From the sequence record JX128258: DNA of 64,000 bases; one strand, 5' to 3'. The translations under genes were made by a program, and so were the position numbers. This DNA comes from Escherichia phage ECML-117. Shown here one piece after another: positions 7,144 through 60,093 of the stretch (its first letter is position 1; the number at the start of each line of letters is the position of its first letter). The notes under the pieces were generated by a model, which did not search any database, had not been told where the DNA came from, and saw nothing but the letters and a program-made list of their open reading frames with translations.

Positions 7144-7446
7144 ATGACTACTTTAATCTCTTCCATCCTTACTTACGACGAAGACCGTTTAACCGTTCGC
7201 TCTCTTATCGCCGCCGTTAACGCGGAACTAGAATCTAGCGCCATTAAGGTCCGCGCGGTCGCCTTCATCGGCCTTTCCTTCGACGATATGAAGTACGCCG
7301 AACGTAGCGCCATCCGCTTCGCGAAGACCGACGACGAAGCCGTTACCCTTATCGAGACGGTTACGCCGCGCGGCGAAGCGTTAATTATCGTCGAGTATAT
7401 CGACGTAGAAGGCGATAAATCTTATAAACATTTTATCGCAGAATGA
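7144..7446 (+). CDS. small acidic protein (100 aa)
   Basis: In frame with track ORF 7087..7446; ATG at 7144 after GGGAG; codon usage rich in CpG, almost no CTG/CAG. Confidence 0.55.
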   Translation: MTTLISSILTYDEDRLTVRSLIAAVNAELESSAIKVRAVAFIGLSFDDMKYAERSAIRFAKTDDEAVTLIETVTPRGEALIIVEYIDVEGDKSYKHFIAE

Positions 7447-7457
7447 CGAAAAAGTGC

Positions 7458-7486
7458 TTTACTTCTTCGTACACTAAGACTATAAT
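7458..7486 (+). promoter_or_regulatory. sigma70-like promoter (TTTACT-N17-TATAAT) for 7554..7844
   Basis: Hexamers read directly; duplicated module of 7060-7087. Confidence 0.5.
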
Positions 7487-7508
7487 GTTTTATATCGAGA
7501 GGGGATGA

Positions 7509-7529
7509 GGTAGCGAATAGGTCGCTACC
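7509..7529 (+). other. leader stem-loop (GGTAGCGA-atagg-TCGCTACC) in 5' UTR
   Basis: 8-bp perfect stem between promoter and RBS; a related imperfect copy lies in the minus-strand leader of 6292..6918. Confidence 0.45.
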
Positions 7530-43811: not shown

Positions 43812-44786
43812 TTAAAAATACTCCATATCGGTAATATCACGGAAGCACTTATACAAGGCAGAGCGCGGCACGTCAACGATGCCAAAGTTAAAGAATTTAT
43901 ATGTCAGATATTTGTTGCGATAGTTCTCGCGATTCTCCCAAAGCATTTTTCTCTCTGCCATAGGCATTGAACCAGCGGAGACGCGGAAAGGAATCATTTC
44001 GCCTTTCTCATCAACATATTTTGGATTGACAACCACAAATGATCCAAGGTATCCTTTCGCAACTAAGCCTTCAGCCTCTTTCGAACGCTTAGTGCGACCC
44101 AACTCATCAATGAATGCCTCGTTGTTGTTCTCCATCATCTCAACGAAGTCTATGATCAATCCTTCTTCATCGGTCCACGGCTTGTCCTTCCACACATCAC
44201 GTGACTTTGGCGTCGCGCGGCCATGCTTGTATTTGCCCGTCCAAGACTTGCCATACAAGCCTTCATAGCCAAGCTGGTCTGCTTCGATTTGCATTGCCGC
44301 GTACTGTTCCATATTTTCGATGTTTCGATATTCGAGAGCGCGAAGGAATGGGCGTCGACCATGGTTGATGAGGTGCTGATTGACTTCAGCAACTCTAGCG
44401 CGATAGTTTGCATAACGCTTTTCAAAAGGCAAATCAGGGTCGCTGAAGTCATCAAACACCCACCATGTAAAGTTAGTGATTGCATCAGTATTCATGCAGG
44501 CTGTATAGGCTTGCTGCATGACGTTCTTGTCGTTCGGATTGCCGTCAATAAGCTCTCCATCAAGGCCATGAATCAATTCACCCAAAAAGAGGAACTCTTT
44601 TTTGATTTGAATGTTGCGCAGAGCCATGCCGGACGTGCCCATTGGCAAGTTGTCATACGCCATCGCGCGTATGCCATCGACCTTGAAGGACAACCCGCAA
44701 GGCAGCGGCACATCTTCGCCGCGCTCGATAATTTGCTTACGCTGGCAACCCTTCATTGGTTTTAATGCTTTGATTTCCCCTGCCAT
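43812..44786 (-). CDS. ATP-dependent DNA ligase
   Basis: 324 aa; adenylation motif I FKVDGIRAM (KxDG). Confidence 0.7.
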   Translation of the reverse strand: MAGEIKALKPMKGCQRKQIIERGEDVPLPCGLSFKVDGIRAMAYDNLPMGTSGMALRNIQIKKEFLFLGELIHGLDGELIDGNPNDKNVMQQAYTACMNTDAITNFTWWVFDDFSDPDLPFEKRYANYRARVAEVNQHLINHGRRPFLRALEYRNIENMEQYAAMQIEADQLGYEGLYGKSWTGKYKHGRATPKSRDVWKDKPWTDEEGLIIDFVEMMENNNEAFIDELGRTKRSKEAEGLVAKGYLGSFVVVNPKYVDEKGEMIPFRVSAGSMPMAERKMLWENRENYRNKYLTYKFFNFGIVDVPRSALYKCFRDITDMEYF

Positions 44787-45379
44787 TATTCGCGACCCTC
44801 ATTCATTACTTGTTCCATTGCGTAGGCATAAGCCTGATCAGTCGATTTGATGAACGTGCCGTTGTACATCACCCCTTTACGGTCCTTGATGTCTTCATAG
44901 GCGGCTTGAGCGCAATCAGAAAGTCGAAGTCCATAATCATGCGCTACGCCGGAAAGATAATCCACAGCGGCCATGATGGTGACATCAATATCCATGCTCT
45001 GATTTTTAGCAATGGCGTCGCCAAGTCGTCCGAGCGTCTTTGCCAAGCGAAGGATAAAGGAATGAGGGTGAGCGCCTTTGTCAGCGCAACCGCCGCCGTT
45101 AATGTCTTCGATTTTTGCGCCATTTTGCGCGGCAAGAATAGTTAACACAACAAGGCAATCGCCGATGTCGTCCTTGATGGCGGCTTGTAAATCACAGATG
45201 GCCTGCTCTGTATATCCGATTTCAGGGTCAAAGAACACAAGGTCATGTAATTGATCAACGTGGTCGGTCAACTCCCCAAACTCGCTAATAAGCTTCGGGT
45301 ATTGGTCTTTAAGGCCGCAACCTTTGATGATGTTACGGTCAGAAGCCCACTGGCGAATGTTTGCATAAATCTGGTTCAT
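44786..45379 (-). CDS. MazG-like nucleotide pyrophosphohydrolase candidate
   Basis: 197 aa all-helical; EFGELTDH and DIGDCLVVLTILAA segments resembling MazG metal-binding helices. Confidence 0.45.
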   Translation of the reverse strand: MNQIYANIRQWASDRNIIKGCGLKDQYPKLISEFGELTDHVDQLHDLVFFDPEIGYTEQAICDLQAAIKDDIGDCLVVLTILAAQNGAKIEDINGGGCADKGAHPHSFILRLAKTLGRLGDAIAKNQSMDIDVTIMAAVDYLSGVAHDYGLRLSDCAQAAYEDIKDRKGVMYNGTFIKSTDQAYAYAMEQVMNEGRE

Positions 45380-49287: not shown

Positions 49288-49706
49288 GACAATTCCTCTA
49301 AATACTTGATGATGTGGTGAATAGTTCCCTTCACGATTATCTCACGTTGAACGTCTGCAATATTATAACGCTTTAATTCAATCGAAGGGTGGACTAAATA
49401 AAACATCTTCTCAGAATCGACTTTAAGCAAAACAAATGATGGGTATTTCCAATCATTCCACGAAGAAAGAAAGCTGCACTGACCTTTCTCAAATGCATTT
49501 CTGAAAGGTGCAGTGGTGGCCCTTGCAGGCCACGATTCAAAGAACTTCATTTCAAGCCAAAAGCCGCGCCCTTTCCGGTTGGTGCCGATTACGTCCGGCA
49601 CGCCATCACCCGTCATCGATTCGATTCGTTGAAGCTTCAATATTGATTCTGAATGTTTCTTCAAAGGAACGAAAATGTATTTTTGTTCACGGTTATTTGT
49701 TGCCAT
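49284..49706 (-). CDS. VRR-NUC domain nuclease
   Basis: 140 aa; GVPDVIG...GRGFWLEMK (PD-(D/E)xK) motif. Confidence 0.6.
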   Translation of the reverse strand: MATNNREQKYIFVPLKKHSESILKLQRIESMTGDGVPDVIGTNRKGRGFWLEMKFFESWPARATTAPFRNAFEKGQCSFLSSWNDWKYPSFVLLKVDSEKMFYLVHPSIELKRYNIADVQREIIVKGTIHHIIKYLEELS

Positions 49707-52590
49707 CTGGATACACCTGTTTGATCACGTCGACGATAAACATGTCAATGCCTTCAAGCTTGCGGCCTTTCATCAGGAAGAATGCACCGTTCCCAACGTT
49801 CTCTGCGATGTATTTCCCGTACTTCTGGAACTTCTCTGGGCGAATCCTGAAGCGCATTGGCGAGTCTGTCGAATCATCCTTGCACATAAGGTCGATGAAC
49901 TGGGTCTCAATCTTGTTTCCAAACTTATCCTTATCCGCATAGCGGCCATCAGCTTGAAGACCCTTTTTAAGTTTGCCGTGCTTTGTATAAATGCCGCGCT
50001 CAAGACGTTTACGGATGCGTGTTGCTTCGTTTTCATCTGCCAGCACTTTCTTGGTCAACTTGCCGATTACTATTGCACGCTCGTCATCGCCGACTTCCTT
50101 CATCTGGCGTATTGAAGCACCGGAAGTAACGCCAATCAGATATGGGTCATTATACGCCCAACCGAACTTGGTGTGCATCTCTGTAAGGTCGCCGTATTTG
50201 ACTTCAGCATTTGCCAATGCGTCCTTTTGTTTTTGCGTTAAGGTTCCGGCTTCACGTGCTTCGATGTACTTCATCGCCTTCACCATTCCGTACCCTTTAG
50301 CGTTCATTATGCCGCCAATTAGCTTTCCGTTAGCGATGGTCCAGTTCATTGAAGAGTGATCAGGGTCGATTGGCACATAATCCACGCCTTCCTTCGCAAG
50401 TTCACGTAATATCGCAATCGTCTGGTCTTCGTCCTTAGCAGCGCGTAAGCAAGCAGCAGCAAATTCCAACGGGTAGTGTCGTTTAAGCCACAAGGTCCAG
50501 TAGGTCACGACCGCGTATGACACGGAGTGTGACTTGTTAAAGCCCCATGACCCGAACGTCGCCATCGCCTGCCAAAGCTTTCTTGCATCCGCTTCCGGTA
50601 CGCCGTTATTTATTGCGCCTGCAACGAAGTCTTCGCCAAGCTTGTTAAAGTATTCCTCACCCTTACGACCTGACATCGCCTTACGTACAGCGGATGTTTT
50701 CGCCCAGTCAAATGAACCAATCTCTTTAACCACGGCCATGATTTGCTCTTGGTAAAGAAACACGCCGTAAGTCTCTTTTAAGTACGGCTCAAGTTGCGGT
50801 ACGTCGTACTCAATCGGCGCACGTCCTGCCGCGCGTTCAATGTATTTCTGGGCCATACCGGACGACAACGGGCCAGGTCGGCCAAGTGCTGTCAGGTTAT
50901 CGATTTTGTTAAAGTTATCAACGTGCACAAAGTTGGTCACTGAGCGTACAGCGTCGCCTTCAAACTGGAAGATGCCTGACATCTTGTTTTCGTTAAGGAT
51001 GTCAAGGACGCTTTGGTCATCAAGCTTGATTCCGTACAGCGTTTCAGCATCTATCACACCAGTATCAGAAATGATTCCGAGGGTACGAAGACCCAATGCA
51101 TCAAGCTTCAAAAGGTTAAGGTATTCGCTGTCAGGCTTATCAATTTGCGCAATCCCTTCCGCCGTCACTGTACAGTAATCAGAGATTGGGTCATTACACA
51201 CGATGATTCCCGCTGCGTGAACGCCAGTGTGGGAAGGGTGAATCTCAAGGTCACCCATGCATCGCGCGGCATCGGGATATTTAGCCACAAACTCTTGGCC
51301 CGTGGTCGTTGTTGCAAAGGTATCCTCCAGGCCGTGACCATAACGGGCGTCACCAGATGAGTATTCAAGCAATGCGTTTTTAATGTTGGCCGTTTCGTGA
51401 TATCCAATGTTGAATTTCTTACCAACTTGAGCCATTACTGAGTTGGCCTTAAGCGTGTTGATGTTGCCAAGCTTTGCAACGTTCATTTCGCCGTATTTTT
51501 CTTTAAGGTAATCAAACACCATATAGCGTTTGGTATCCTCAAAGTCAATATCAATATCAGGAAGGTCGGCGCGGCTTACGTCGATGAATCGGGCGAACAG
51601 CAGCTTATACGGGATTGGGTCAACTTCCGTGATGCCGAGGCAATAACAAACCAGTGAACCAGCCGATGAGCCGCGAGCGGGTCCGACGAGCATTTTTGTT
51701 TTTGCAAATCGTACAAGGTCCGCTACCACCAGAAAGTATGAGTCGAAATCTTTCAGCTGAATCTGGTGAATCTCTTCGTTGAATCGGTCCTCATATTCCT
51801 GAGTCCATTCTTTGATGTGACCTGCCTTAAGGCGGTACTCCATACCCTCACGAGCAAGCTTTACCATGTCACCAGCAAGGTGGATAATCGGTGCCTTGCG
51901 CAGCTTCAGGTCAAGTCCCACGATTCCGTTTGCAATATCAACCGCATTGGCAGTTGCTTGATTCAACTCATCTTCGGTCAGGATTCCTTTAAGCTGTTTG
52001 CGCAAGTCTTCCGCGTCAACAATGCAGTGCGGCTTGACCGTGTCGCGAACTTCCCAAGCATAAGCAAAGTCAACGTGCTCAGGTGAAGGCATGTGGTTGT
52101 ATCCGGTTAAAACCAGCGGCCTTCCGTTGCTGCGGTGAGCCAATACCTGGCGCTTGGCCAAAAGGAACGATGATGGGTTGACGTCTATATAATCGTAGTC
52201 CTCTGGCCGCAGCAACTCCACGGCACCGCCACAGAATTTAACGACTCCATCGAGCGCCCCGAACTCTGCACGGGTCAGTCCGCCGCGTTGTGTTGCAAGC
52301 GTGGTCGCGTTGTAAAAGGACTTCAGGTCAAGCGCCAATATCCAAGCCTTCGGTTTGAATCCATTTTTCGGGTCCGCATCAGGGTCGATGATTGGAATTT
52401 CCATGCCGAACATAGGCTTGATATCATTCTTCTGACATTCCTTTTCCCAGCGAACGTGACCCCATGTATTATTATCAACTAATGCCGCGACTTCGCAGCC
52501 CAACTCTTTGAGCCGTGCTATAATTTCAGGATGCCGTCCATATACTTCTTTGAACGTGTAACCGCTGCGAACTCTCAATTGTGGAAACAT
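49693..52590 (-). CDS. dnaE: DNA polymerase III alpha-type (DnaE-like) polymerase with PHP domain
   Basis: 965 aa; N-terminal PHP-like region, central palm-like region (GPARGSSAGSLVCYCLGITEVDP). Confidence 0.75.
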   Translation of the reverse strand: MFPQLRVRSGYTFKEVYGRHPEIIARLKELGCEVAALVDNNTWGHVRWEKECQKNDIKPMFGMEIPIIDPDADPKNGFKPKAWILALDLKSFYNATTLATQRGGLTRAEFGALDGVVKFCGGAVELLRPEDYDYIDVNPSSFLLAKRQVLAHRSNGRPLVLTGYNHMPSPEHVDFAYAWEVRDTVKPHCIVDAEDLRKQLKGILTEDELNQATANAVDIANGIVGLDLKLRKAPIIHLAGDMVKLAREGMEYRLKAGHIKEWTQEYEDRFNEEIHQIQLKDFDSYFLVVADLVRFAKTKMLVGPARGSSAGSLVCYCLGITEVDPIPYKLLFARFIDVSRADLPDIDIDFEDTKRYMVFDYLKEKYGEMNVAKLGNINTLKANSVMAQVGKKFNIGYHETANIKNALLEYSSGDARYGHGLEDTFATTTTGQEFVAKYPDAARCMGDLEIHPSHTGVHAAGIIVCNDPISDYCTVTAEGIAQIDKPDSEYLNLLKLDALGLRTLGIISDTGVIDAETLYGIKLDDQSVLDILNENKMSGIFQFEGDAVRSVTNFVHVDNFNKIDNLTALGRPGPLSSGMAQKYIERAAGRAPIEYDVPQLEPYLKETYGVFLYQEQIMAVVKEIGSFDWAKTSAVRKAMSGRKGEEYFNKLGEDFVAGAINNGVPEADARKLWQAMATFGSWGFNKSHSVSYAVVTYWTLWLKRHYPLEFAAACLRAAKDEDQTIAILRELAKEGVDYVPIDPDHSSMNWTIANGKLIGGIMNAKGYGMVKAMKYIEAREAGTLTQKQKDALANAEVKYGDLTEMHTKFGWAYNDPYLIGVTSGASIRQMKEVGDDERAIVIGKLTKKVLADENEATRIRKRLERGIYTKHGKLKKGLQADGRYADKDKFGNKIETQFIDLMCKDDSTDSPMRFRIRPEKFQKYGKYIAENVGNGAFFLMKGRKLEGIDMFIVDVIKQVYPDGNK

Positions 52591-53132
52591 TATTTACTCC
52601 ATATGTCATATACGCCAATTTGTTGGCAGACTTTGTGCAGTAATATTACGTCGTCTAATGCACGGTGCTTCTGTTCATATTTTCCGAAATATAATTCATA
52701 CAGCTCTTGAAGCTTAACTCTTCGGCCAAAAATAGGCAAGGTTTGCTCGACTGTACAAATGTTTATTTCTGGAAAATTAACATCACCAAGTGTAAGACCT
52801 TCGCGCTGTAATGCATAGTCAAGAATGTTTTTATCAAACGCATGGTTGTGCGCGATAGTTGCATCCGTCTTCTTGAAGATTTCTTTTAGTTGCGGAACGA
52901 AATGGATGAAGGGTGGATTACACTCAAGGTCTTCGTTGGTTAATCCGGTAATCTTTGTGATGATTTCTTCAATCACAATTTCAGGATTAATTATGAACTC
53001 GAACGTTTCAAGAATCTCTTTGCCGTCCGTCAGCAGTCCTGCAAATTCAATAGGGCGCGGCTGCATTCCAAGCGGCGCTTTCGGGTGCACGGTTAATCCG
53101 GTTGTTTCGAAGTCATAAGGGAGAAATAACAC
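52590..53132 (-). CDS. DnaQ-like 3'-5' exonuclease (DEDDh)
   Basis: 180 aa; YDFETTG (Exo I), HNHAFD (Exo II), HRALDD (Exo III). Confidence 0.7.
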   Translation of the reverse strand: MLFLPYDFETTGLTVHPKAPLGMQPRPIEFAGLLTDGKEILETFEFIINPEIVIEEIITKITGLTNEDLECNPPFIHFVPQLKEIFKKTDATIAHNHAFDKNILDYALQREGLTLGDVNFPEINICTVEQTLPIFGRRVKLQELYELYFGKYEQKHRALDDVILLHKVCQQIGVYDIWSK

Positions 53133-53186
53133 ATTGGCCTCCTACAAAAAGGCCGCCCATTAGGACGGCCACAGATTCACGATTCG

Positions 53187-53738
53187 TTATGCAGTGTACG
53201 GAGTACCGTCTTGATTCAAGCGCACGATAAACTTCAAATCAACGCCGATGATTTCACGCGTATCAAAGATCACATAGTTGTAACGACGCTGACCAGCAAT
53301 ATTTGGGTTGGTGTGAGAGTCGGTCACAACTTCCTGCGCAACCTGAATGCCTTCTTCTTTAAAGAACTTGCGCCATTCAGCAAGTTCAGCGGCAGTCACG
53401 TGCATACCAAGATGGCTAACCTGATTGTCGTGCGCATCGATGTATTCGATGTTTTCGTGAATCCAGTTGCAACCTTTTGTATAGTCAAGAATTTCAAGCT
53501 CAAGAGGCTTACCAGCGCCGCCATCGGTGCCGTTGCCAGCCTGATAGTTGAAGCGCAAGTCAGCTTCGTTGGTGCAATCGCCGCGCTGACCCTTAAAGAC
53601 ATCAGCTTCAAATACGCGACCAGTAGCAACAACGTGATCATGGAACCATTCTGTCAGGCCGATTTTAGCCAGGAAATTCTGTGCGCGCTGAGCACCTGGA
53701 ATTGACAGGGCGATTTGTTCAATTTTAAAGTGTGGCAT
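53187..53738 (-). CDS. hypothetical protein (183 aa)
   Basis: Track ORF; no confident motif. Confidence 0.5.
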   Translation of the reverse strand: MPHFKIEQIALSIPGAQRAQNFLAKIGLTEWFHDHVVATGRVFEADVFKGQRGDCTNEADLRFNYQAGNGTDGGAGKPLELEILDYTKGCNWIHENIEYIDAHDNQVSHLGMHVTAAELAEWRKFFKEEGIQVAQEVVTDSHTNPNIAGQRRYNYVIFDTREIIGVDLKFIVRLNQDGTPYTA

Positions 53739-53834
53739 TTTGTTTCCTTAATTAAATATTATTGATTAATTACTGTGTTATCTTCGTCCTGTTTCTTTTC
53801 AGGAGCGGGTGTGACAACTTCAAATGTTCGTGAT

Positions 53835-54518
53835 TTATTTCCCAAATGGAATATCAGTACCAGACATAAAACGCCATGCGCCCGTAATTAAGATATGGCG
53901 AATGAAGTCAGCAATTACTTGCGGCTCAGTCTCCAATCCATTCATCAACGCCTTTTTCTGGTATTCAGCAGCATACTCAGGAGTCCAGCCGCGAGTCGCG
54001 CAAACAGCATCTTCAATCTGTTTGGACATACCAGTGCCGCGCAACTTGTTAGGACTAATAGAAAATACCGTGATCCCGTATTTAGGCGTAAGCTCGTGAG
54101 CCATCTGCTTGCTAATCATGAGCGCAGCAGCCTTGGAAGCATTATAACACAAGCTGGACGTCATAGGAATATGCGCAGCGTTGGAAACGATATTGATCAC
54201 AAAACCTTTGTTGTCGATAAGACTTTTCAGCGCGGCTTGAGTCGTGTTGACGAAAGAGAAGGCGTTGGTGTGCATAACGCGATTGAACTCTTCGTAGTTA
54301 ACATCTTCAAACCAGTTGTTGGAGTTGACGCCAGCACAGTTGATCAAGCCTTCTACATCATATGGGCTTAAAATTTCTTTCATCTGTTTCGCGTCGCGGA
54401 CGTCATATCCGTATGCTGAATCGATTCCAAGCACGTTATGACCGTAAGCGCCAAGGGTGTCAAAAATAGATTTACCAAGACCGGAATTGGAACCTGTTAC
54501 AACAATTACTTTTTTCAT
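53835..54518 (-). CDS. short-chain dehydrogenase/reductase (SDR)
   Basis: 227 aa; VTGSNSGLGKS cofactor-binding motif and YNASK catalytic motif. Confidence 0.65.
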   Translation of the reverse strand: MKKVIVVTGSNSGLGKSIFDTLGAYGHNVLGIDSAYGYDVRDAKQMKEILSPYDVEGLINCAGVNSNNWFEDVNYEEFNRVMHTNAFSFVNTTQAALKSLIDNKGFVINIVSNAAHIPMTSSLCYNASKAAALMISKQMAHELTPKYGITVFSISPNKLRGTGMSKQIEDAVCATRGWTPEYAAEYQKKALMNGLETEPQVIADFIRHILITGAWRFMSGTDIPFGK

Positions 54519-54539
54519 TTATTTATCCTTTTTGGACTT

Positions 54540-54573
54540 CGTTTCGATGAGATAAATATAACTCATCGAAACG
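54540..54573. repeat. perfect 12-bp palindrome CGTTTCGATGAG-N10-CTCATCGAAACG
   Basis: Read directly between HAD and SDR genes; a related imperfect element lies at 47706-47733. Confidence 0.7.
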
Positions 54574-54583
54574 CACAAGTAAA

Positions 54584-55456
54584 CTATTTATTGAAATTAA
54601 TATTGTGGGTGTTGACGAGACGTTCACACATGGCGCTGTAAACACCATCGTCGTGTATAGAGTCTTCGTGCTTCAGGCCGCTGATTGCAAAGCGTGTAAG
54701 CTTGACAATCTTAAGCTCGAACAGATGCCACATGTGGTAGTCTTCCGGCGTTTTCAACGTTACGCCATTAGGGAAAAGCACCTGCATAACCTGGCCAACC
54801 ATCACGGCATTATCGCCATAGACAGCGTTGCGCTCACGGAAGGTTGCTGCCATTGCATCAAGAATATCGGCGGCAGTTGCCGGAGATTGTTCAACTTCCA
54901 CAGTCTTAGTCTCTTCTTGTCCTGTTGCGCTTGGATCAATTGCTAATTGTTGCACCACTTCACCTGCCTTGCAAAGATTAAATGTAAAAGCGATTTTATT
55001 TTGAGCAACGGAATTATAATACAATGCTTCATCTTGCATCCGCGCGAGCACGTCTTGTCGGTCGTCGAATACATTGATGATTCGATAATCGCCGTGCCGC
55101 AATGCGTGCGATAGCCATGCAGATTTCATAATAGTTGATGGACGTTTGTCGCCATAGTCTCTCATCTTGATTGTAAATTCATCAAAAGGAAAAACATTGT
55201 CCAGACGTTCAAAAGTCACTTGTCTGTATTTTTCTGGCCTTGCAGTCCAATATTCAACCGCCTCACCGCGAAGAGATGCCGACTCTACTGCTGATGCAAT
55301 GCGAGGATAGAACTGATCATAACCAATACCGCTGTGATAGTCATCATAGTCTGACAACGGACCTGCCACCTTTATGCGGTCCAAGCGCCAACGGTCATCA
55401 AACAGCGTTCCGTCAAGGTCGAATACGTTTAATATTTGGTTATTTTTAATACTCAT
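54584..55456 (-). CDS. HAD-superfamily hydrolase/phosphatase
   Basis: 290 aa; N-terminal motif I FDLDGTLF. Confidence 0.55.
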   Translation of the reverse strand: MSIKNNQILNVFDLDGTLFDDRWRLDRIKVAGPLSDYDDYHSGIGYDQFYPRIASAVESASLRGEAVEYWTARPEKYRQVTFERLDNVFPFDEFTIKMRDYGDKRPSTIMKSAWLSHALRHGDYRIINVFDDRQDVLARMQDEALYYNSVAQNKIAFTFNLCKAGEVVQQLAIDPSATGQEETKTVEVEQSPATAADILDAMAATFRERNAVYGDNAVMVGQVMQVLFPNGVTLKTPEDYHMWHLFELKIVKLTRFAISGLKHEDSIHDDGVYSAMCERLVNTHNINFNK

Positions 55457-56256
55457 CCCTTTGACACTCCATCTTTAGCAACTGGATTGTTGGTGATTGG
55501 CGCGGCATCCCAAAACTGGATGCGCAACTCTTCTTGCTGTGCCGTGGTATCCATCCAATCACGATACCAAGGGCAATGGGCTTTGCCATGACGAGGAAAC
55601 GCGCATTTACCCATACCGATGCATTGCGGCTGTAGTAAAGGATTAGCCCACGGGTGCACCTTGAGGACTTCCGCAACCATTGCGCGAAATACTTCTTGAT
55701 ACTCGCCTTGGGTGCGCGTGCACAAGCGGTTGGAAGCCATCTGTTGCAGCGTGCGCAAGTTGAACTTTGCCATGATATGCGTTTGCATATTAGAAGGCAA
55801 CACGGCACGTGCATCTTGAATCTCTGCGCCAGCCGCGCGAAGTTCTTGGTATAGGGCGTCAATGGTCGCCATTGCATCATCCCAGGTGTTAGCCAACTTC
55901 AAACGCTGCTCGTCGATTCTCTCGCCGATAACCCTGTCAGGGTCGTCATACTCAAACGCTTTCGGACGAATCGCATCAAACGCAGAAGACTCCTGAGCGC
56001 GGCTGGTGCGTTCTTGATATGCGCCTGTGCGTGTGCGTACCATCTGATGGGTCATGTTCTTTGATACATCTGTGATATCAAAAATATAGTCCACAAAGTC
56101 AAAAGGTGACTTGATTGTATCGAGCATGTAGCGCCAATGCTCTTGCTTCTCTGATTCCGTCATCTCAGAGACAGGCTTACCAGTCATGCGCGTGTTCTTT
56201 GTTTCCAGCAAAAGGTCAAGTGCATCTTGGGTGTATCGAATTAATTCAACTTTCAT
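55453..56256 (-). CDS. ThyX-like (flavin-dependent thymidylate synthase fold) protein with non-canonical motif
   Basis: 267 aa; SPFDFVDYIFDITDVS and RTRTGAYQERTS align by eye to ThyX TPFEHIVFTFHVKAP and RHRIASYNELS; the RHR-x7-S signature is altered. Confidence 0.4.
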   Translation of the reverse strand: MKVELIRYTQDALDLLLETKNTRMTGKPVSEMTESEKQEHWRYMLDTIKSPFDFVDYIFDITDVSKNMTHQMVRTRTGAYQERTSRAQESSAFDAIRPKAFEYDDPDRVIGERIDEQRLKLANTWDDAMATIDALYQELRAAGAEIQDARAVLPSNMQTHIMAKFNLRTLQQMASNRLCTRTQGEYQEVFRAMVAEVLKVHPWANPLLQPQCIGMGKCAFPRHGKAHCPWYRDWMDTTAQQEELRIQFWDAAPITNNPVAKDGVSKG

Positions 56257-56269
56257 TTTAATTATCCTA

Positions 56270-56716
56270 TTAACGGTAATTCACTAGTTGCTGATCACCA
56301 GAGAAGGTGCAATGATAAACGAATTGTGCGTTATAAAGCAACTGAAAACTTTTCTTTGGTTCACTATTAGCACTCATCGATGTGAATACTTCTGCACCGG
56401 AACGGTTTTCACCGATTAAGTTGACAAAGCCGCCAGTTGTGCGAGGTTGAACGAAAGTGAAGCGTTGCATCCACGGAGTCCGGTTGGCACCTTTACCTGT
56501 GAATCCTTGAATCTGAATATTCAGACCTTCTTGCTCGTTCACACCGATGTAAGTGGTAATCTTTGCACCAGTCGTTGCTGCGGTCTTCCCGTCCATCGCT
56601 TCGCAATCGTAAACAGCGATTGAATCGGAAGTGCGGATGGCAGCTTCAGTCGCTTCCATATACATGGTGCCGAGAATAGCAGTTGCGGCAAGCGCGATTC
56701 CAGTGATTCGTTTCAT
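56270..56716 (-). CDS. secreted protein (148 aa)
   Basis: Signal-like N-terminus MKRITGIALAATAILGTMYMEATEA. Confidence 0.5.
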   Translation of the reverse strand: MKRITGIALAATAILGTMYMEATEAAIRTSDSIAVYDCEAMDGKTAATTGAKITTYIGVNEQEGLNIQIQGFTGKGANRTPWMQRFTFVQPRTTGGFVNLIGENRSGAEVFTSMSANSEPKKSFQLLYNAQFVYHCTFSGDQQLVNYR

Positions 56717-56781
56717 TTTCGTTTCCTCTATGAGTTCTGCTTCAATGATTAAAGTATACGCCCATTGAAGCAGAAAGCAAA

Positions 56782-57777
56782 TTATTTATTAGCAATATAA
56801 GCAAATTTTTGATAGTTATTTGCTTTGATGAGTTTTTCGACTTCAACAAGGTCATGAGCGACGTCATCAAGCAAAATGTTTCGCCAGGTAGCGAATCTAC
56901 CGACACTAAAAACGTTCAAATCCATAGTCAGCTGCAGGAGTAGGGCGTGTCGCAAGTCTTTCGGAATGTCGACAATCTTGCCATATTTCTGGTCGACCTT
57001 TTCAACTTCTTCAAGAGCGATATCACTCCATGAAAGGCCAAATGCCGTCAACACTTCGTCGACTTCTGCGCGAAGCTTCATGTCACGGTAACGAGTGATG
57101 CCTCCAGCGGCTTCAACTGCAGCTTCACTTACGCTGACTAAAGGAATTGTTTCAATGATAAGCGTGTCACCAGTAATTGATGCGCGGTAAGTTCTGACGG
57201 AGTAGTCAGGGAAGTAAATTGTCTGATACAAATCACACTTACGTTTAATCTTAAAGCGGTAAACGCGAATGTTTGCTTTATCAAATGAAAAATCAAGCTT
57301 TTGATCAATTCCAGCAAGCTTCATCATGACTGGCAGCGGCGACGTGTTGATGATTGGCGTCTCGCTATAGCCGCAAAGAGTATCAACAGGAGTATTAAAG
57401 AATATGCGGTCACCCAGTTTGTCGACAAGCTGATCATAAAAGTCATCAGGCGCAATATAACGCGTTGCAGTCTTAAGCTTCATGATTGAACGGCTGCCAA
57501 ACTGATTGGTGACCTTCATGGAATACATATTGGCAAGGTTAATTGGGCAATGGTCATGGTAGTAGTTGCCGCGAAAATACACAGCCTTGTCAACTGTCAC
57601 GGCCTTAAAGGGGATTCCGGTAATACGGCTTACTTCTTCGCCACGGAAGCGTAGCAATGCCTTGTGCTGTTGCGCTCGTTCCCCTGCTTCGTACACAACA
57701 GAGTTCGGGAAGTGACACGCTGTGATAAGTCCTGCCAGTCCGCCGCCGATAATCATTACAGGTTGTTTCATGTTCAT
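56782..57777 (-). CDS. FAD/NAD(P)-binding flavoprotein oxidoreductase
   Basis: 331 aa; N-terminal IIGGGLAGL Rossmann motif; C-terminal GRFATWRNILLDD resembles the C-terminal motif of UGM/amine-oxidase-type flavoenzymes. Confidence 0.5.
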   Translation of the reverse strand: MNMKQPVMIIGGGLAGLITACHFPNSVVYEAGERAQQHKALLRFRGEEVSRITGIPFKAVTVDKAVYFRGNYYHDHCPINLANMYSMKVTNQFGSRSIMKLKTATRYIAPDDFYDQLVDKLGDRIFFNTPVDTLCGYSETPIINTSPLPVMMKLAGIDQKLDFSFDKANIRVYRFKIKRKCDLYQTIYFPDYSVRTYRASITGDTLIIETIPLVSVSEAAVEAAGGITRYRDMKLRAEVDEVLTAFGLSWSDIALEEVEKVDQKYGKIVDIPKDLRHALLLQLTMDLNVFSVGRFATWRNILLDDVAHDLVEVEKLIKANNYQKFAYIANK

Positions 57778-57909
57778 TTGTCCTTTGTGGGTGATATGAG
57801 AAGTATAATAGCTAAATTATTTTACAGCAACAAGTCATTTTATTTAGTACAGATGAAAAAAGACCCACAACAAGTGTGGGTCAATTACCGCTGCATAACC
57901 GTCCTAAGG

Positions 57910-58755
57910 TTATTCCGCTTGATCACCGTCTTCGGCATCGTCGTTGGATTCAACATCGACAAACTCGATGTGACCCATCTCTTCCAGCTTGCTCAGGTAG
58001 GAGCGAACGGAAGCGCCAAACAGTTGATCTTTAACTTTTTCGCCCAGCTCATCGATAGACTGCGCCACGCCAACTTCGCCTTCTTTGATCGCCGCCAGAA
58101 CGCGTCCACGGGTGGAGTGCTCTTGCGGCTGGCTCAGGCCATTGCCAGTGTAGATGAAGTGAGTAGCTTTTGCACGACGCTGACCGTTTGCCTTTTTAGC
58201 GGCCTTACGTTCTGCGATGGCTTTGCGACGTTCTTCAGCTTCTTTCTTACGCTGTTCTTTCTGCTGTTCTGCAGCTTCTTTCGCCGCAATCTTAGCAGCT
58301 TCACGCTCTGCCTTGCGTTTCGCTTTAGCTTCTTCTTTAGCCTTCTCTTTTTCGGCCTTCGCTGCAGCACGGGCTTGATCACGCTCTGCTTTCTTAGCAG
58401 CAGCTTGCTCAGCTTTCAGACGCTTGGCTTCTTCTTTAGCCTTCGCCTTTTCGATTTCTTTTGCTGCTTTAGCGGCTTCACGCTCTGCCTTCTTAGCAGC
58501 AGCCTTTTCTGCACGCTCTTTGGCTTTCTTCGCTGCTTCTTCAGCACGTTTCTGAGCCTTCTCATCAGCAGCCTGCTTACGTTTCAGTGCAGCTTCTTCA
58601 CGCTTGGCTTGTTTTTCCTGCTCACGCTTTTGGCGTTTTTCTTCGGCTTCTTTCTTTTTAGCCAGGCGTTTTTCTTCAGCCACGCGACGACGTTCTGCTG
58701 CAGCTGCTTGTTTTTCTTCTTTAGATAATACTTTGATTGCTTCGGCCATGTTCAC
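57910..58755 (-). CDS. Lys/Ala/Glu-rich (TolA-like repeat) protein with C-terminal globular domain
   Basis: 281 aa; about 180 residues of KAEEKAA-type repeats; the plus-strand ORF 57664..58728 is its low-complexity antisense. Confidence 0.55.
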   Translation of the reverse strand: MNMAEAIKVLSKEEKQAAAAERRRVAEEKRLAKKKEAEEKRQKREQEKQAKREEAALKRKQAADEKAQKRAEEAAKKAKERAEKAAAKKAEREAAKAAKEIEKAKAKEEAKRLKAEQAAAKKAERDQARAAAKAEKEKAKEEAKAKRKAEREAAKIAAKEAAEQQKEQRKKEAEERRKAIAERKAAKKANGQRRAKATHFIYTGNGLSQPQEHSTRGRVLAAIKEGEVGVAQSIDELGEKVKDQLFGASVRSYLSKLEEMGHIEFVDVESNDDAEDGDQAE

Positions 58756-58908: not shown

Positions 58909-60093
58909 TTAACGCGCTTTCAAATCACGGTACACAGTCAGATTCTTCTTAGCGCGGGTAATAGCCGTATACATCATCTTGGCATACGGAACGCCGCGCA
59001 AGATTTCTTCCAGCACGCACACATTGTCCCACTCGCTGCCTTGCGATTTGTGCACCGTTATGACATAGCCATAGTCCATTCCTCCAACAGCGCGTTGGGC
59101 CTCTTTGCGCACTTCCTGATCAGTAGAGAAGGAAAGAGGATTTATCTTCACCTTTATATCTTTGCCATCGGTAAGCGAGCGCAAATTGACATACATTATT
59201 TCATTAGACTCATCTTCATCCCTTTCAAAGTCCGGCACTGGCTCATAACTAATAACAATTCCTTGTTCGCCATTACAGAATCCTGGCCCGTGTTGGTTGA
59301 ATGTGCAAATAACTTTCTCGCCGATTCCTGGCATTGGCGTTATACGTCCGCTCACTTGTCGCAATAATGAATTCCATTTATCTTTGGTGCTATTATAAGA
59401 GCAAATAATTTGATCATCTTCGCCCATAAATTTCTTCAGAGCGGTAACGCGCGGCGATTCAGCCAACACCTTTACATCATCATATTCACGCGGAGGAAGT
59501 CGGTTGCCCTGTCGCACGAAGAAGGAAGCGCGGATTATGTTGGACTCTTTCCCCTGCCGCATGATTTCGGTCAACAGTACGTCAACTGCATCTTCAGTAA
59601 AGTAGGCAGCGGCTTTTACCGGAGGGACTTGTCCAATGTCGCCTAATGCCAGCACAGGGATGCGGTGATCAAGAAGGCGTTCTGTGTCCCACTCACCGAC
59701 CATTGAAGCTTCATCAAGGACGACAAGATGCGGCCTTTCATCAAGAGTTGACTTTCTTGCGAATATTGGTTCATTGTCATCGTTAACGCCGCGCACGTTA
59801 TAGATGAACTGGTGAAGGGTCTTAGCGCCACGACACCCTTTCTGCTTCAATCGGCTGGCTGCCTTTCCGGTCGGCGCAATATAAATGGCACCGTACTCAC
59901 CGACACAACGGCGCACAATCTCACGCGCAATAGAGGTTTTACCTGTTCCTGCATAGCCAGCGATGAAAAATACGCGCTTCGTTGTTTTACCGTCCTGCAA
60001 TCGCTTGTACCATGCAACGGCCTTTTCGATGGCATCAATTTGTTGCGCGTTGAACTGAATCACCGGCTCATCATTAAATTCTGGAATGTTCAT
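58909..60093 (-). CDS. SF1 DNA helicase (Dda/RecD-like)
   Basis: 394 aa; Walker A GYAGTGKTS, Walker B VLDEASMV, C-terminal ITVHKSQGSEWDNV. Confidence 0.7.
   Translation of the reverse strand: MNIPEFNDEPVIQFNAQQIDAIEKAVAWYKRLQDGKTTKRVFFIAGYAGTGKTSIAREIVRRCVGEYGAIYIAPTGKAASRLKQKGCRGAKTLHQFIYNVRGVNDDNEPIFARKSTLDERPHLVVLDEASMVGEWDTERLLDHRIPVLALGDIGQVPPVKAAAYFTEDAVDVLLTEIMRQGKESNIIRASFFVRQGNRLPPREYDDVKVLAESPRVTALKKFMGEDDQIICSYNSTKDKWNSLLRQVSGRITPMPGIGEKVICTFNQHGPGFCNGEQGIVISYEPVPDFERDEDESNEIMYVNLRSLTDGKDIKVKINPLSFSTDQEVRKEAQRAVGGMDYGYVITVHKSQGSEWDNVCVLEEILRGVPYAKMMYTAITRAKKNLTVYRDLKAR

Follow-up and report, generated by a model that had tools for sequence, protein, structure and literature searches.

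A minus-strand operon next to the replicase genes of Escherichia phage ECML-117 (JX128258; the 64,000-nucleotide stretch analyzed here is called the window) encodes what we consider, with a probability of roughly 55%, to be a DNA-modification pathway. It would convert thymines in TG to a bulky sugar or polyol derivative that shields TG sites from restriction. According to our sequence comparisons, five of its six genes form an ancient syntenic module: a flavoprotein, a ThyX-family enzyme, a HAD-DUF6378 fusion, an SDR and a VOC-like protein. The operon appears to be the best candidate for the machinery behind TG thymine decoration and, by analogy, the modification would be of the same kind as that found chemically in the Pbunavirus phages F8 and 14-1. 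Pbunaviruses, among the most-used phages in therapy against Pseudomonas, were not found to carry TG-specific thymidine hypermodification until 2025 (PMC12191111). The sequence-only reading of this region had proposed a small metabolic pathway, possibly for DNA base modification. This idea is partly supported; the secreted protein that it included falls outside the module.

ORF calling showed that positions 53187-57777 are filled by six minus-strand ORFs, all at the limits previously given. As predicted from sequence, these limits match one transcription unit between two intrinsic terminators. A strong minus-strand terminator (57862..57882; GACCCACA-CTTGT-TGTGGGTC, then TTTTTT), whose counterpart is annotated in phage Mansfield, ends the upstream gene and sets the upstream operon boundary. 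It is followed on the same strand by a promoter-like element read by eye from the sequence (57805..57833; TTGTTG, 17 nt, TATTAT), which is tentatively a promoter with a weak -35 box under the scan threshold, and 3' of it by a minus-strand RBS (AAAGGA, 57781-57786) before the flavoprotein gene. The second minus-strand terminator, likewise strong (53151..53170; GGCCGTCC-TAAT-GGGCGGCC, then TTTTT) forms the operon end, just upstream of the gene for a DnaQ-like exonuclease (52590-53132, minus strand). PolIII alpha (DnaE; 49693-52590, minus strand) also lies downstream, and a RecD/Dda-like helicase (58909-60093) upstream. With 92-97% nucleotide identity to WFH and Bas98-101, this coliphage belongs to Wifcevirus.

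The first gene (56782..57777, minus strand) encodes a single-Rossmann FAD protein of 331 aa from a phage family without a characterized member. Its previously noted GGGLAG motif was borne out at residues 11-16. The fold appears nearest to UDP-galactopyranose mutase (UGM), the top match, and protoporphyrinogen oxidase (PPO); it has one dinucleotide-binding motif and is of the oxidase/mutase type, not of the flavin-reductase type. At the sequence level, no Pfam family was matched even at E<=10, GLF included, and searches of the PDB by phmmer and by profile hmmsearch gave no UGM and only matches at the Rossmann tip. A full-library HMMER search with the family profile returned only the family itself among the 150 matches listed, with no bridge to annotated families. 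Renalase-like, sarcosine-oxidase-like (CH2-THF supply) and flavin reductase roles were also considered, and the fold ranking favors none of them.

The third gene (55453..56256, minus strand) encodes a divergent ThyX-family flavoenzyme of 267 aa whose C-terminal extension is rich in Cys. The family assignment made earlier was upheld by Pfam Thy1 (PF02511, E=6.7e-30, 104.7 bits vs a cutoff of 24.8). The score against the NCBIfam equivalog TIGR02170 was 81.4, under the cutoff of 87.9, and matches to ThyX in the PDB reached only E ~5e-05. In place of the signature RHR-X7-S it has R74-T-R76...T84-S-R86. Each of the six module-linked ThyX proteins compared has R-[T/N/S]-R instead of RHR and Thr at the position of the motif Ser, while the motif Tyr is replaced by A/V/I in the subfamily (Ala in ECML-117). 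Alignment with T. maritima ThyX shows that the arginines binding dUMP and FAD there are conserved here. The protein thus shares with ordinary ThyX the Thy1 domain and these arginines, and differs here in its R-T-R, Thr and Ala, its C-terminal extension and its strict coupling to the flavoprotein. Indeed, the subfamily and the flavoprotein have the same distribution in cultured phages, both searches giving records from 292 Pseudomonas, 25 Escherichia, 9 Serratia and 6 Xanthomonas phages.

This enzyme retains the arginines one would expect in ordinary dUMP methylation and may simply make dTMP. The operon would then be a nucleotide-pool module in which ThyX supplies very fast replication, HAD-DUF6378 acts as a nucleotidase or pyrophosphatase sanitizing or shifting dNTP pools, and the flavoprotein, SDR and VOC-like protein provide or regenerate folate or redox cofactors; TG modification, if present, would come from other, unrecognized genes. 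The Thy1 score well over threshold and the conserved arginines speak for this explanation, as do the frequency of ThyX in phages, the location among replication genes and the fact that SDRs include pteridine reductases. Against it stand the oxidase/mutase-type fold and single dinucleotide-binding motif of the flavoprotein and the polynucleotide-phosphatase type of the HAD domain, and we regard it as rather unlikely.

The HAD gene (54584..55456, minus strand) shares 4 nt at its start with the end of the ThyX gene and encodes a protein of 290 aa, with a capless PNKP-type HAD phosphatase at residues 1 to ~175 and a DUF6378-like four-helix domain at ~195-280. The HAD hydrolase proposed earlier was confirmed by FDLDGTLFDD and by Pfam HAD_PNKP (E=8e-08). 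All four HAD motifs (DxDxT, T/S, K, DD) are present, with D13, D15, T71, K111, D131 and D132 invariant in 45 sequences. The capless fold is like that of the T4 Pnkp phosphatase, and the domain is structurally nearest to polynucleotide 3'-phosphatases. It superposes at 1.7-1.9 A on the 3'-phosphatase domain of T4 Pnkp and bacterial Pnkp1, with every catalytic motif present, but Pfam detects no P-loop 5'-kinase domain and, unlike in T4 Pnkp, the DUF6378-like domain is fused in its place; naming it 'polynucleotide kinase', as databases do, is therefore misleading. The ECML-117 domain itself has no match to DUF6378 (PF19905) even at E<=10 and full-length homologues match weakly (E=0.004 and 0.055), while many stand-alone homologues, 65-70% identical, carry precomputed PF19905. 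Its profile found no structure for the domain in the PDB, its one hit being to an unrelated HAD at the N-terminus that a single row of the alignment brought in. Comparisons by hhalign with the MazG-like protein of this phage and with the Ss1 DUF3310 fusion showed no relation, and a MazG-like pyrophosphatase role would be a guess. Literature searches returned nothing on DUF6378 function.

The next gene (53835..54518, minus strand) encodes a classical SDR of 227 aa (adh_short, E=2.6e-31), in which both motifs reported earlier, TGSNSGLG and YNASK, were found. It has TGxxxGxG, NAG and the Asn-Ser-Tyr-Lys catalytic tetrad; four lineages share T8, G9, G13, G15, D33, N85, S112, Y125 and K129 without variation, and the enzyme is probably NAD(H)-dependent. 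The SDR co-occurs with the gene for a putative VOC (glyoxalase/dioxygenase)-fold protein of 183 aa (53187..53738, minus strand), and neither was detected in any Pbunavirus record. This protein had been left unassigned, and it has indeed no Pfam match at E<=0.01, but a weak Glyoxalase_4 match (E=0.091, 'faint' in homologues) and InterPro IPR029068, cited in the Mansfield record only, suggest that it may be VOC-like. Identity is 51-55% to its Pam3-like counterparts and 34% to that of a Microbacterium phage, with E80, E82, H109, H113 and H142 invariant.

The remaining protein, of 148 aa (56270..56716, minus strand), is encoded between the flavoprotein and ThyX genes. Its N-terminus (MKRITGIALAATAILGTM) resembles a Sec-type signal peptide as judged by eye from the sequence, without a predictor, in line with the secreted protein first proposed. 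It has no Pfam or PHROG family. By tblastn it is confined to 27 Wifcevirus records, and is therefore a lineage-specific insert outside the conserved module; the corresponding slot in Pbunavirus holds five unrelated small ORFs. A secreted protein in the operon would suit another explanation, a sugar or small-molecule pathway apart from DNA, for example nucleotide-sugar or O-antigen precursor remodelling for superinfection exclusion, in which the UGM-like enzyme, SDR, VOC-like protein and phosphatase act on sugars and the secreted protein is the effector. The UGM fold match, the SDR, VOC and HAD folds, typical of sugar tailoring, and the published role of the O-antigen as the Wifcevirus receptor are in its favor. 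We hold it to be very improbable.

The clustering is more than chance: the order of the five genes is repeated in phage lineages that are not related. The full module adjoins the DnaQ/DnaE replicase in Wifcevirus and in Pam3-like environmental phages, where the order is flavoprotein...ThyX-(Pyr_excise)-HAD-DUF6378-SDR-VOC-exonuclease-PolIII alpha and identities are 36-44% for the flavoprotein, 41% for ThyX, 30% for HAD, 67% for DUF6378, 46-49% for the SDR and 51-55% for the VOC-like protein; tblastn found no Pyr_excise homologue in the window. The core (flavoprotein-ThyX-HAD) adjoins the exonuclease and PolIII alpha in Pbunavirus, in Cronobacter podovirus Ss1 and in a 42-kb podovirus-like contig, and its genes are more dispersed in a 206-kb Rhizobium phage. 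An actinophage keeps a replicase-linked module without ThyX, which argues against a nucleotide-pool role. Linkage to the replicase was seen in every lineage examined; in at least five phage lineages, the module and a DnaE-type replicase have been passed on together. In metagenomes, the flavoprotein forms more than a thousand clusters at 50% identity.

We observed that 6-bp palindromes with TG are exempt from the strong avoidance of palindromes in all four module-bearing genomes tested, and in none of six control coliphages. None of the 16 TG-containing palindromes is absent from the window vs 16 of the 48 others, and for palindromes with four G/C positions the median log2(O/E) is -0.12 with TG and -2.24 without. 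Using Markov-corrected expectations and GC stratification, the TG effect was 1.23 in the ECML-117 window (p=2e-4), 0.82 in F8, 0.96 in Pantoea PA1 and 0.87 in Ss1, compared to -0.65 to 0.63 in six control coliphages. The two groups are fully separated (1 in 210 by rank), the controls being partly non-independent (two Chaseviridae, two Kuravirus). No dinucleotide other than TG has an effect above zero in each of the four genomes. In the ThyX-less actinophage the TG effect had p=0.07. The footprint cannot single out the module genes, because these are inherited along with the replicase and further replication genes; its presence in Ss1, an otherwise unrelated podovirus, again speaks against the nucleotide-pool explanation.

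Published plating data give Bas98-100 an EOP of ~1 on EcoCFT_II, but no plaques on EcoP1. Our recounted restriction sites agree exactly with the table of that study, and the counts fit a recognition site CACAG/CTGTG, with two TG, that we infer for EcoCFT_II; the EcoP1 site AGACC/GGTCT contains no TG. Protection of TG sites is consistent with both phenotypes and accounts for this published paradox. Wifceviruses also resist EcoRI and EcoRV (published plating data), whose sites (19 and 4 in Wifcevirus) lack TG, and the TG rule does not account for this resistance. EcoRI cuts F8, unlike the resistant Wifceviruses (PMC12191111). The authors of the plating study state that no mechanism of genome protection is known. 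The EcoRI and EcoRV data, together with the depletion of the 4-mer CATG in the window (198 observed vs 278 expected) and a weak TG effect in control TH21 (p=0.036), count against TG modification. They would fit a reading in which signature and phenotypes arise without base modification, for instance through protection by DNA binding, mutational or codon bias, or injection of an anti-restriction protein, and in which the operon is irrelevant to both. This is improbable, as the Markov and GC corrections take out simple composition bias, the CACAG vs AGACC type III contrast is complete and sequence-specific, and F8, whose TG-specific modification is chemically proven, has the same footprint.

In the proposed modification pathway, the flavoprotein and ThyX would perform carbon chemistry at the pyrimidine C5 or C5-methyl, with a sugar phosphate as donor. 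ThyX-type enzymes alkylate C5 via a flavin-N5 iminium, and UGM-type enzymes form an analogous flavin-N5 iminium with sugar C1. The capless PNKP-like HAD phosphatase, a type acting on nucleic-acid ends, would, with help from the DUF6378 domain, dephosphorylate the adduct on the DNA, and the SDR and VOC-like protein would tailor the sugar by oxidoreduction or epimerisation. Since these two genes occur in Wifcevirus-type but not in Pbunavirus phages, the final adduct is probably not the same as in F8 or 14-1. The secreted protein of 148 aa is an unrelated insert. A possible, if doubtful, version is a new route in which ThyX and the UGM/PPO-fold flavoprotein act on DNA post-replication and join the sugar phosphate to the thymine C5 or C5-methyl at TG, through a flavin-N5 iminium or a reverse ThyX hydride, before HAD trims the phosphate. 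No sequence-specific DNA-binding element was found, which counts against TG modification. This concrete five-gene candidate pathway is testable and predicts that TG is also modified in Wifcevirus, Kylevirus and Ss1-like podoviruses. If true, flavin-based chemistry would join the DNA-hypermodification repertoire, and the flavoprotein, R-x-R ThyX and HAD-DUF6378 would be a marker set predicting modified genomes in metagenomes, relevant to sequencing, cloning and engineering of therapeutic phages and to defences such as END nucleases.

One of the closest known systems is that of F8 and 14-1, in which ~25% of T is replaced at TG by a sugar-like hypermodified thymidine (Yee et al., 2025, preprint; PMC12191111). 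The modified nucleosides, of 362 and 390 Da, are described as tetrose-alcohol and pentose derivatives, respectively, and the preprint assigns no genes to them (PMC12191111). By our own mass arithmetic, 362 equals T + tetrose or dU + pentose + 2H - H2O, and 390 equals T + pentose - 2H or dU + hexose - H2O. Between the two phages, the identity of the module proteins is 81-97%, and no gene was gained or lost that would explain the different adducts, an observation that counts against the proposed pathway and for a nucleotide-pool role. Conversely, F8 is proven to be hypermodified, yet over ~57 of its 66 kb no further enzyme-like genes are listed besides MazG-like, ligase and replication proteins. 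ECML-117 is related to these phages and shares with them the flavoprotein (~39% identity), ThyX (~50%), the HAD-DUF6378 fusion, the replicase-adjacent position and the TG palindrome footprint. Pbunaviruses lack the SDR and VOC genes and are cut by EcoRI, whereas Wifcevirus, known here from sequence, has both genes.

The comparison with known hypermodification clusters was suggested by the sequence-only reading. Literature searches returned no paper tying the module genes to DNA modification. In ViI, M6, SP10 and PhiW-14, a ThyA-type hydroxymethylase first makes 5-hmdU, and 5-HMU DNA kinase, aGPT-Pplase and PLP or radical-SAM enzymes perform later steps (Lee et al., 2018, PMC5889632; 2021, PMC8989533). 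At the annotation level, no ThyA-type dUMP hydroxymethylase, 5-HMU DNA kinase, aGPT-Pplase, PLP or radical-SAM enzyme of this kind is annotated in complete Bas99 or in the ~57 of 66 kb of F8, and Pfam finds no 5-hmdU-pathway enzymes in the ECML-117 cluster itself. The outcome proposed here resembles that in these phages, where a bulky group is placed on part of the thymidines, apparently post-replication and in a sequence-dependent manner, and protects against restriction; in both cases the genes cluster with replication genes. Unlike them, the system proposed here would employ a ThyX-family enzyme, a UGM/PPO-fold flavoprotein, a PNKP-type phosphatase-DUF6378 fusion and, in Wifcevirus, an SDR and a VOC-like protein.

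According to our ORF check and domain search, the six minus-strand ORFs that the sequence-only reading had placed at 53187-57777 are present at those positions, and the motifs it quoted are genuine. They include genes for a flavoprotein (56782-57777; PHROG 4828, "unknown function"), a ThyX-like protein that passed Pfam Thy1 (55453-56256), a 290-aa HAD_PNKP phosphatase that carries an additional domain at its C-terminus (54584-55456), a classical SDR of 227 aa (53835-54518) and a 183-aa protein with a VOC/glyoxalase match that is weak at best (53187-53738). The remaining one, a 148-aa signal-peptide protein, was found only in Wifcevirus and does not belong to the module. The block is framed exactly by two strong intrinsic terminators on the minus strand (57882-57862 and 53170-53151), and a promoter-like TTGTTG-17-TATTAT and an RBS (AAAGGA) precede the flavoprotein gene; the coordinates therefore delimit an operon. 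It is flanked by a RecD/Dda-like helicase gene on one side and by DnaQ-like exonuclease and PolIII alpha genes on the other. The end of the ThyX gene and the beginning of the HAD-fusion gene share 4 nt (55453-55456, minus strand), a hint that their translation is coupled. At the DNA level, 27 phage records match the block with 92-97% identity; all are Wifcevirus myoviruses that infect E. coli or Shigella, among them WFH, WFC, FEC19, Mansfield and Bas98-101.

Several neighbouring features were also recorded. The gap between the SDR and VOC genes measures only 96 nt in the window (53739-53834); a small ORF is annotated there in other Wifceviruses (Bas99_0047, 56 aa; Mansfield_067, 71 aa), and the Pam3-like environmental phage L009 carries a lipoprotein-like 93-aa ORF in the equivalent gap. 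The gene at 57910-58755 (minus strand) encodes a 281-aa protein whose long N-terminal part is of low complexity and rich in Lys, Glu and Ala, whereas its C-terminal domain is conserved (phrog_4765, unknown function). At the C-terminus it shares 54% identity with Pbunavirus ORF066, likewise located just upstream of the flavoprotein gene, and in L009 the flavoprotein is preceded by a 187-aa protein whose C-terminus looks similar; the 281-aa protein may serve as a regulator or as a DNA-binding partner. Beside the ligase and spanin genes lies a separate gene for a MazG-like pyrophosphatase (44786-45379, minus strand), conserved in Pbunavirus (F8 ORF049). Among the annotated proteins of these genomes, its product is the sole other small-molecule enzyme, and it could feed the pathway too.

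The flavoprotein matched no Pfam or NCBIfam family. Its own family comprises about 1955 members when clustered at 90% and forms 1144 clusters at 50%, with a single GxGxxG, E30, an HKALLRFR motif, many Arg and Lys and a C-terminal GRFATWRNILLDD motif as invariants. The fold appears to resemble those of UGM and PPO. Membership of the UGM family was considered and rejected; no sequence method linked the two.

The ThyX-like protein could be an ordinary dTMP synthase: in an alignment with T. maritima ThyX, the arginines at the dUMP- and FAD-binding positions are retained. Its score is under the NCBIfam equivalog cutoff (81.4 vs 87.9), and where ThyX has RHR, Ser and then Tyr, all six module-linked proteins (6/6) have R-[T/N/S]-R, Thr and A/V/I instead. 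In Wifcevirus and Pbunavirus a Cys-rich C-terminal segment is added. It spans residues ~203-267 in the window (55453-55650, minus strand; CIGMGKCAFPRHGKAHCPWY, plus the Cys in RLCTR), contains a further insertion of ~40 aa in Pbunavirus and is lacking in the ThyX of the other module-bearing lineages. This extension may be a metal site.

In the HAD fusion, all catalytic residues are invariant and no kinase domain was found. The phosphatase is a capless HAD, a group whose substrates are typically macromolecular. The C-terminal ~90 residues comprise four helices and appear to belong to DUF6378, whose stand-alone 95-aa homologues are 65-70% identical between very different phages, an unusually strong conservation. 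In the Cronobacter podovirus Ss1, orf32 (L002, 7561-8241) encodes a HAD phosphatase fused to DUF3310, not DUF6378, and hhalign found no relation between these two domains; different small helical phage domains may fill one role on the phosphatase. The catalytic tetrad of the SDR is intact, and the protein carries an Asp typical of NAD-preferring enzymes. The VOC protein has invariant His and Glu residues that are candidates for a metal site, and the Mansfield record gives it an InterPro glyoxalase superfamily assignment.

The module is conserved well outside Wifcevirus. A tblastn search with the flavoprotein returned 360 phage records (292 Pseudomonas [Pbunavirus], 25 Escherichia, 9 Serratia, 8 Rhizobium, 6 Xanthomonas and others), and the ThyX subfamily has the same distribution. 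In Pbunavirus the exonuclease and PolIII alpha genes adjoin those of the flavoprotein, ThyX and HAD fusion; in Ss1 the flavoprotein, ThyX and HAD-DUF3310 fusion are neighbours; a 42-kb podovirus-like metagenomic contig reads flavoprotein-ThyX-HAD-x-exonuclease-PolIII alpha; and a 206-kb Rhizobium phage has flavoprotein, ThyX and HAD all inside 7 kb. The Pam3-like phages have the complete set with its gene order kept (flavoprotein, ThyX, Pyr_excise, HAD_PNKP, stand-alone DUF6378, SDR, VOC, exonuclease, PolIII alpha), and their proteins are 30-67% identical to those of the window. The actinophage Sparcetus encodes, beside DnaE, a Pyr_excise-like protein, a distant flavoprotein, an NT5C-like HAD, an SDR, a VOC and a DUF6378 protein, and has no ThyX gene within or adjoining its module. 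SDR and VOC always co-occur, and no Pbunavirus record was found to contain either. The Pyr_excise gene of the Pam3-like modules (7160-7522 in both L006 and L009) encodes a homologue of T4 endonuclease V, a pyrimidine-dimer DNA glycosylase; a weaker match lies in the Microbacterium phage module (L005, 3234-3782), and none was found in the window.

[quoted passage not shown] In F8, a nucleoside of 362 Da ("erythrose/threose sugar alcohol derivative") replaces about 1/4 of the thymidines, and in phage 14-1 one of 390 Da ("circularized aldopentose derivative") does so; such phages are described as lacking known modification genes (PMC12191111). In the ~57 of 66 kb of F8 that we examined, and likewise in the complete Bas99 genome, no enzyme-like genes were listed beyond the module except MazG-like, ligase and replication proteins. 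By our own arithmetic, 362 equals T + tetrose or dU + pentose + 2H - H2O, and 390 equals T + pentose - 2H or dU + hexose - H2O, so the published masses fit both a thymidine-plus-sugar and a deoxyuridine-plus-sugar reading. One weak point is that the F8 and 14-1 module proteins are 81-97% identical, yet the adducts differ.

We then compared observed with Markov-expected counts for the full set of 64 six-bp palindromes. In the window, those free of TG are extremely avoided: 16 of these 48 do not occur at all, while none of the 16 with TG is missing. Among the absent ones are AGCGCT (0 observed, 25 expected), TCCGGA (0/19), CCGCGG (0/16), CGGCCG, GGTACC, ACCGGT, AGTACT, GGATCC and GAGCTC; base composition over 1-64000 predicts about 10-18 occurrences for each of these nine. 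Among palindromes with four G/C positions, the median log2(O/E) is -0.12 with TG vs -2.24 without. F8, the experimentally proven case, showed the same pattern. Pooled O/E of TG palindromes was 0.93 in the window, 0.96 in F8, 0.84 in Pantoea phage PA1 (Kylevirus) and 0.95 in Ss1, all with the module, and 0.60-0.77 in six control coliphages without it (T7, two Chaseviridae, one Drexlerviridae, two Kuravirus); fully modified T-even phages, also without the module, gave 0.91-0.98 for both palindrome classes. A GC-stratified permutation test (TG minus non-TG) gave effects of 1.23 (p=2e-4) for the window, 0.82 (p=0.012) for F8, 0.96 (p=0.0012) for PA1 and 0.87 (p=1e-4) for Ss1. Controls ranged from -0.65 to 0.63, one being nominally significant (p=0.036), and Sparcetus, which has no ThyX, gave 0.29 (p=0.07). 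All four module-bearing effects exceed all six controls (1 in 210 by rank), and TG was the one dinucleotide whose effect was positive in each of the four. Apart from the replicase and the core module, Ss1 has little in common with the myoviruses, and the TG signature therefore follows that gene set, with the weak point that the replicase is co-inherited with the module. CATG is under-represented in the window (198 observed vs 278 expected; TGCA, 348 vs 344), which is at odds with the simple rule of protection at every TG. Among tetranucleotides, GATC (111 vs 275) and CCGG (80 vs 151) were also scarce.

For EcoCFT_II we presumed the site CACAG/CTGTG. Our Bas99 site counts match the published table exactly (EcoKI 5, EcoCFT_I 3, EcoRI 38, EcoRV 8, EcoP1 89), and CACAG occurs 92 times, exactly the figure published for EcoCFT_II and one given by only 5 of 512 5-mer pairs in this genome; this count supports the presumed site. 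CTGTG contains two TG, and the EcoP1 site AGACC/GGTCT none. Bas98-100 plate on EcoCFT_II with an EOP of ~1-1.5 and form no plaques on EcoP1, EcoP1_I being the named exception in the published Wifcevirus phenotypes. The TG rule resolves this paradox, which the authors of that paper pointed out. TG likewise occurs in the type I sites AAC(N6)GTGC and GAG(N7)GTCA/TGAC, and EcoCFT_I is without effect. Wifceviruses are also nearly completely resistant to the EcoRI and EcoRV systems (EOP 0.3-0.9 for EcoRI, 0.3-1 over both). Their genomes have 19 EcoRI and 4 EcoRV sites (14 and 9 in the window); other TG-free sites in the genome are those of HindIII (48), SalI (30) and DraI (20). Neither the EcoRI nor the EcoRV site contains TG, and a modification of TG only therefore leaves this resistance unexplained; either Wifcevirus protection extends beyond TG or a second mechanism is added.

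Our results thus demonstrate a TG-specific protection footprint and a conserved, replicase-linked operon that encodes two flavoenzymes, a fusion of a polynucleotide-type phosphatase with DUF6378, an SDR and a VOC protein. These bear out part of the sequence-only proposal of a small metabolic pathway acting on nucleotides or nucleotide-sugars, possibly in DNA base modification, the secreted protein it had included falling outside. We put the probability that the module makes a DNA modification at about 0.55, and hold the specific chemistry that we infer to be far less certain. The core trio would put a sugar-derived group onto thymine at TG. Flavin-N5 iminium chemistry operates at uracil C5 in ThyX, TrmFO and MnmG and at sugar C1 in UGM; its use by both uracil and sugar enzymes makes it plausible that a flavin joins a sugar carbon to C5 or to the C5-methyl group. 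The donor would be a sugar phosphate, which would explain the presence of a phosphatase, and in phages of the Wifcevirus type the adduct would be tailored by SDR and VOC. If true, this candidate pathway would be a phage thymidine hypermodification whose enzymology differs from that of the known 5-hmdU, kinase and aGPT-Pplase pathways.
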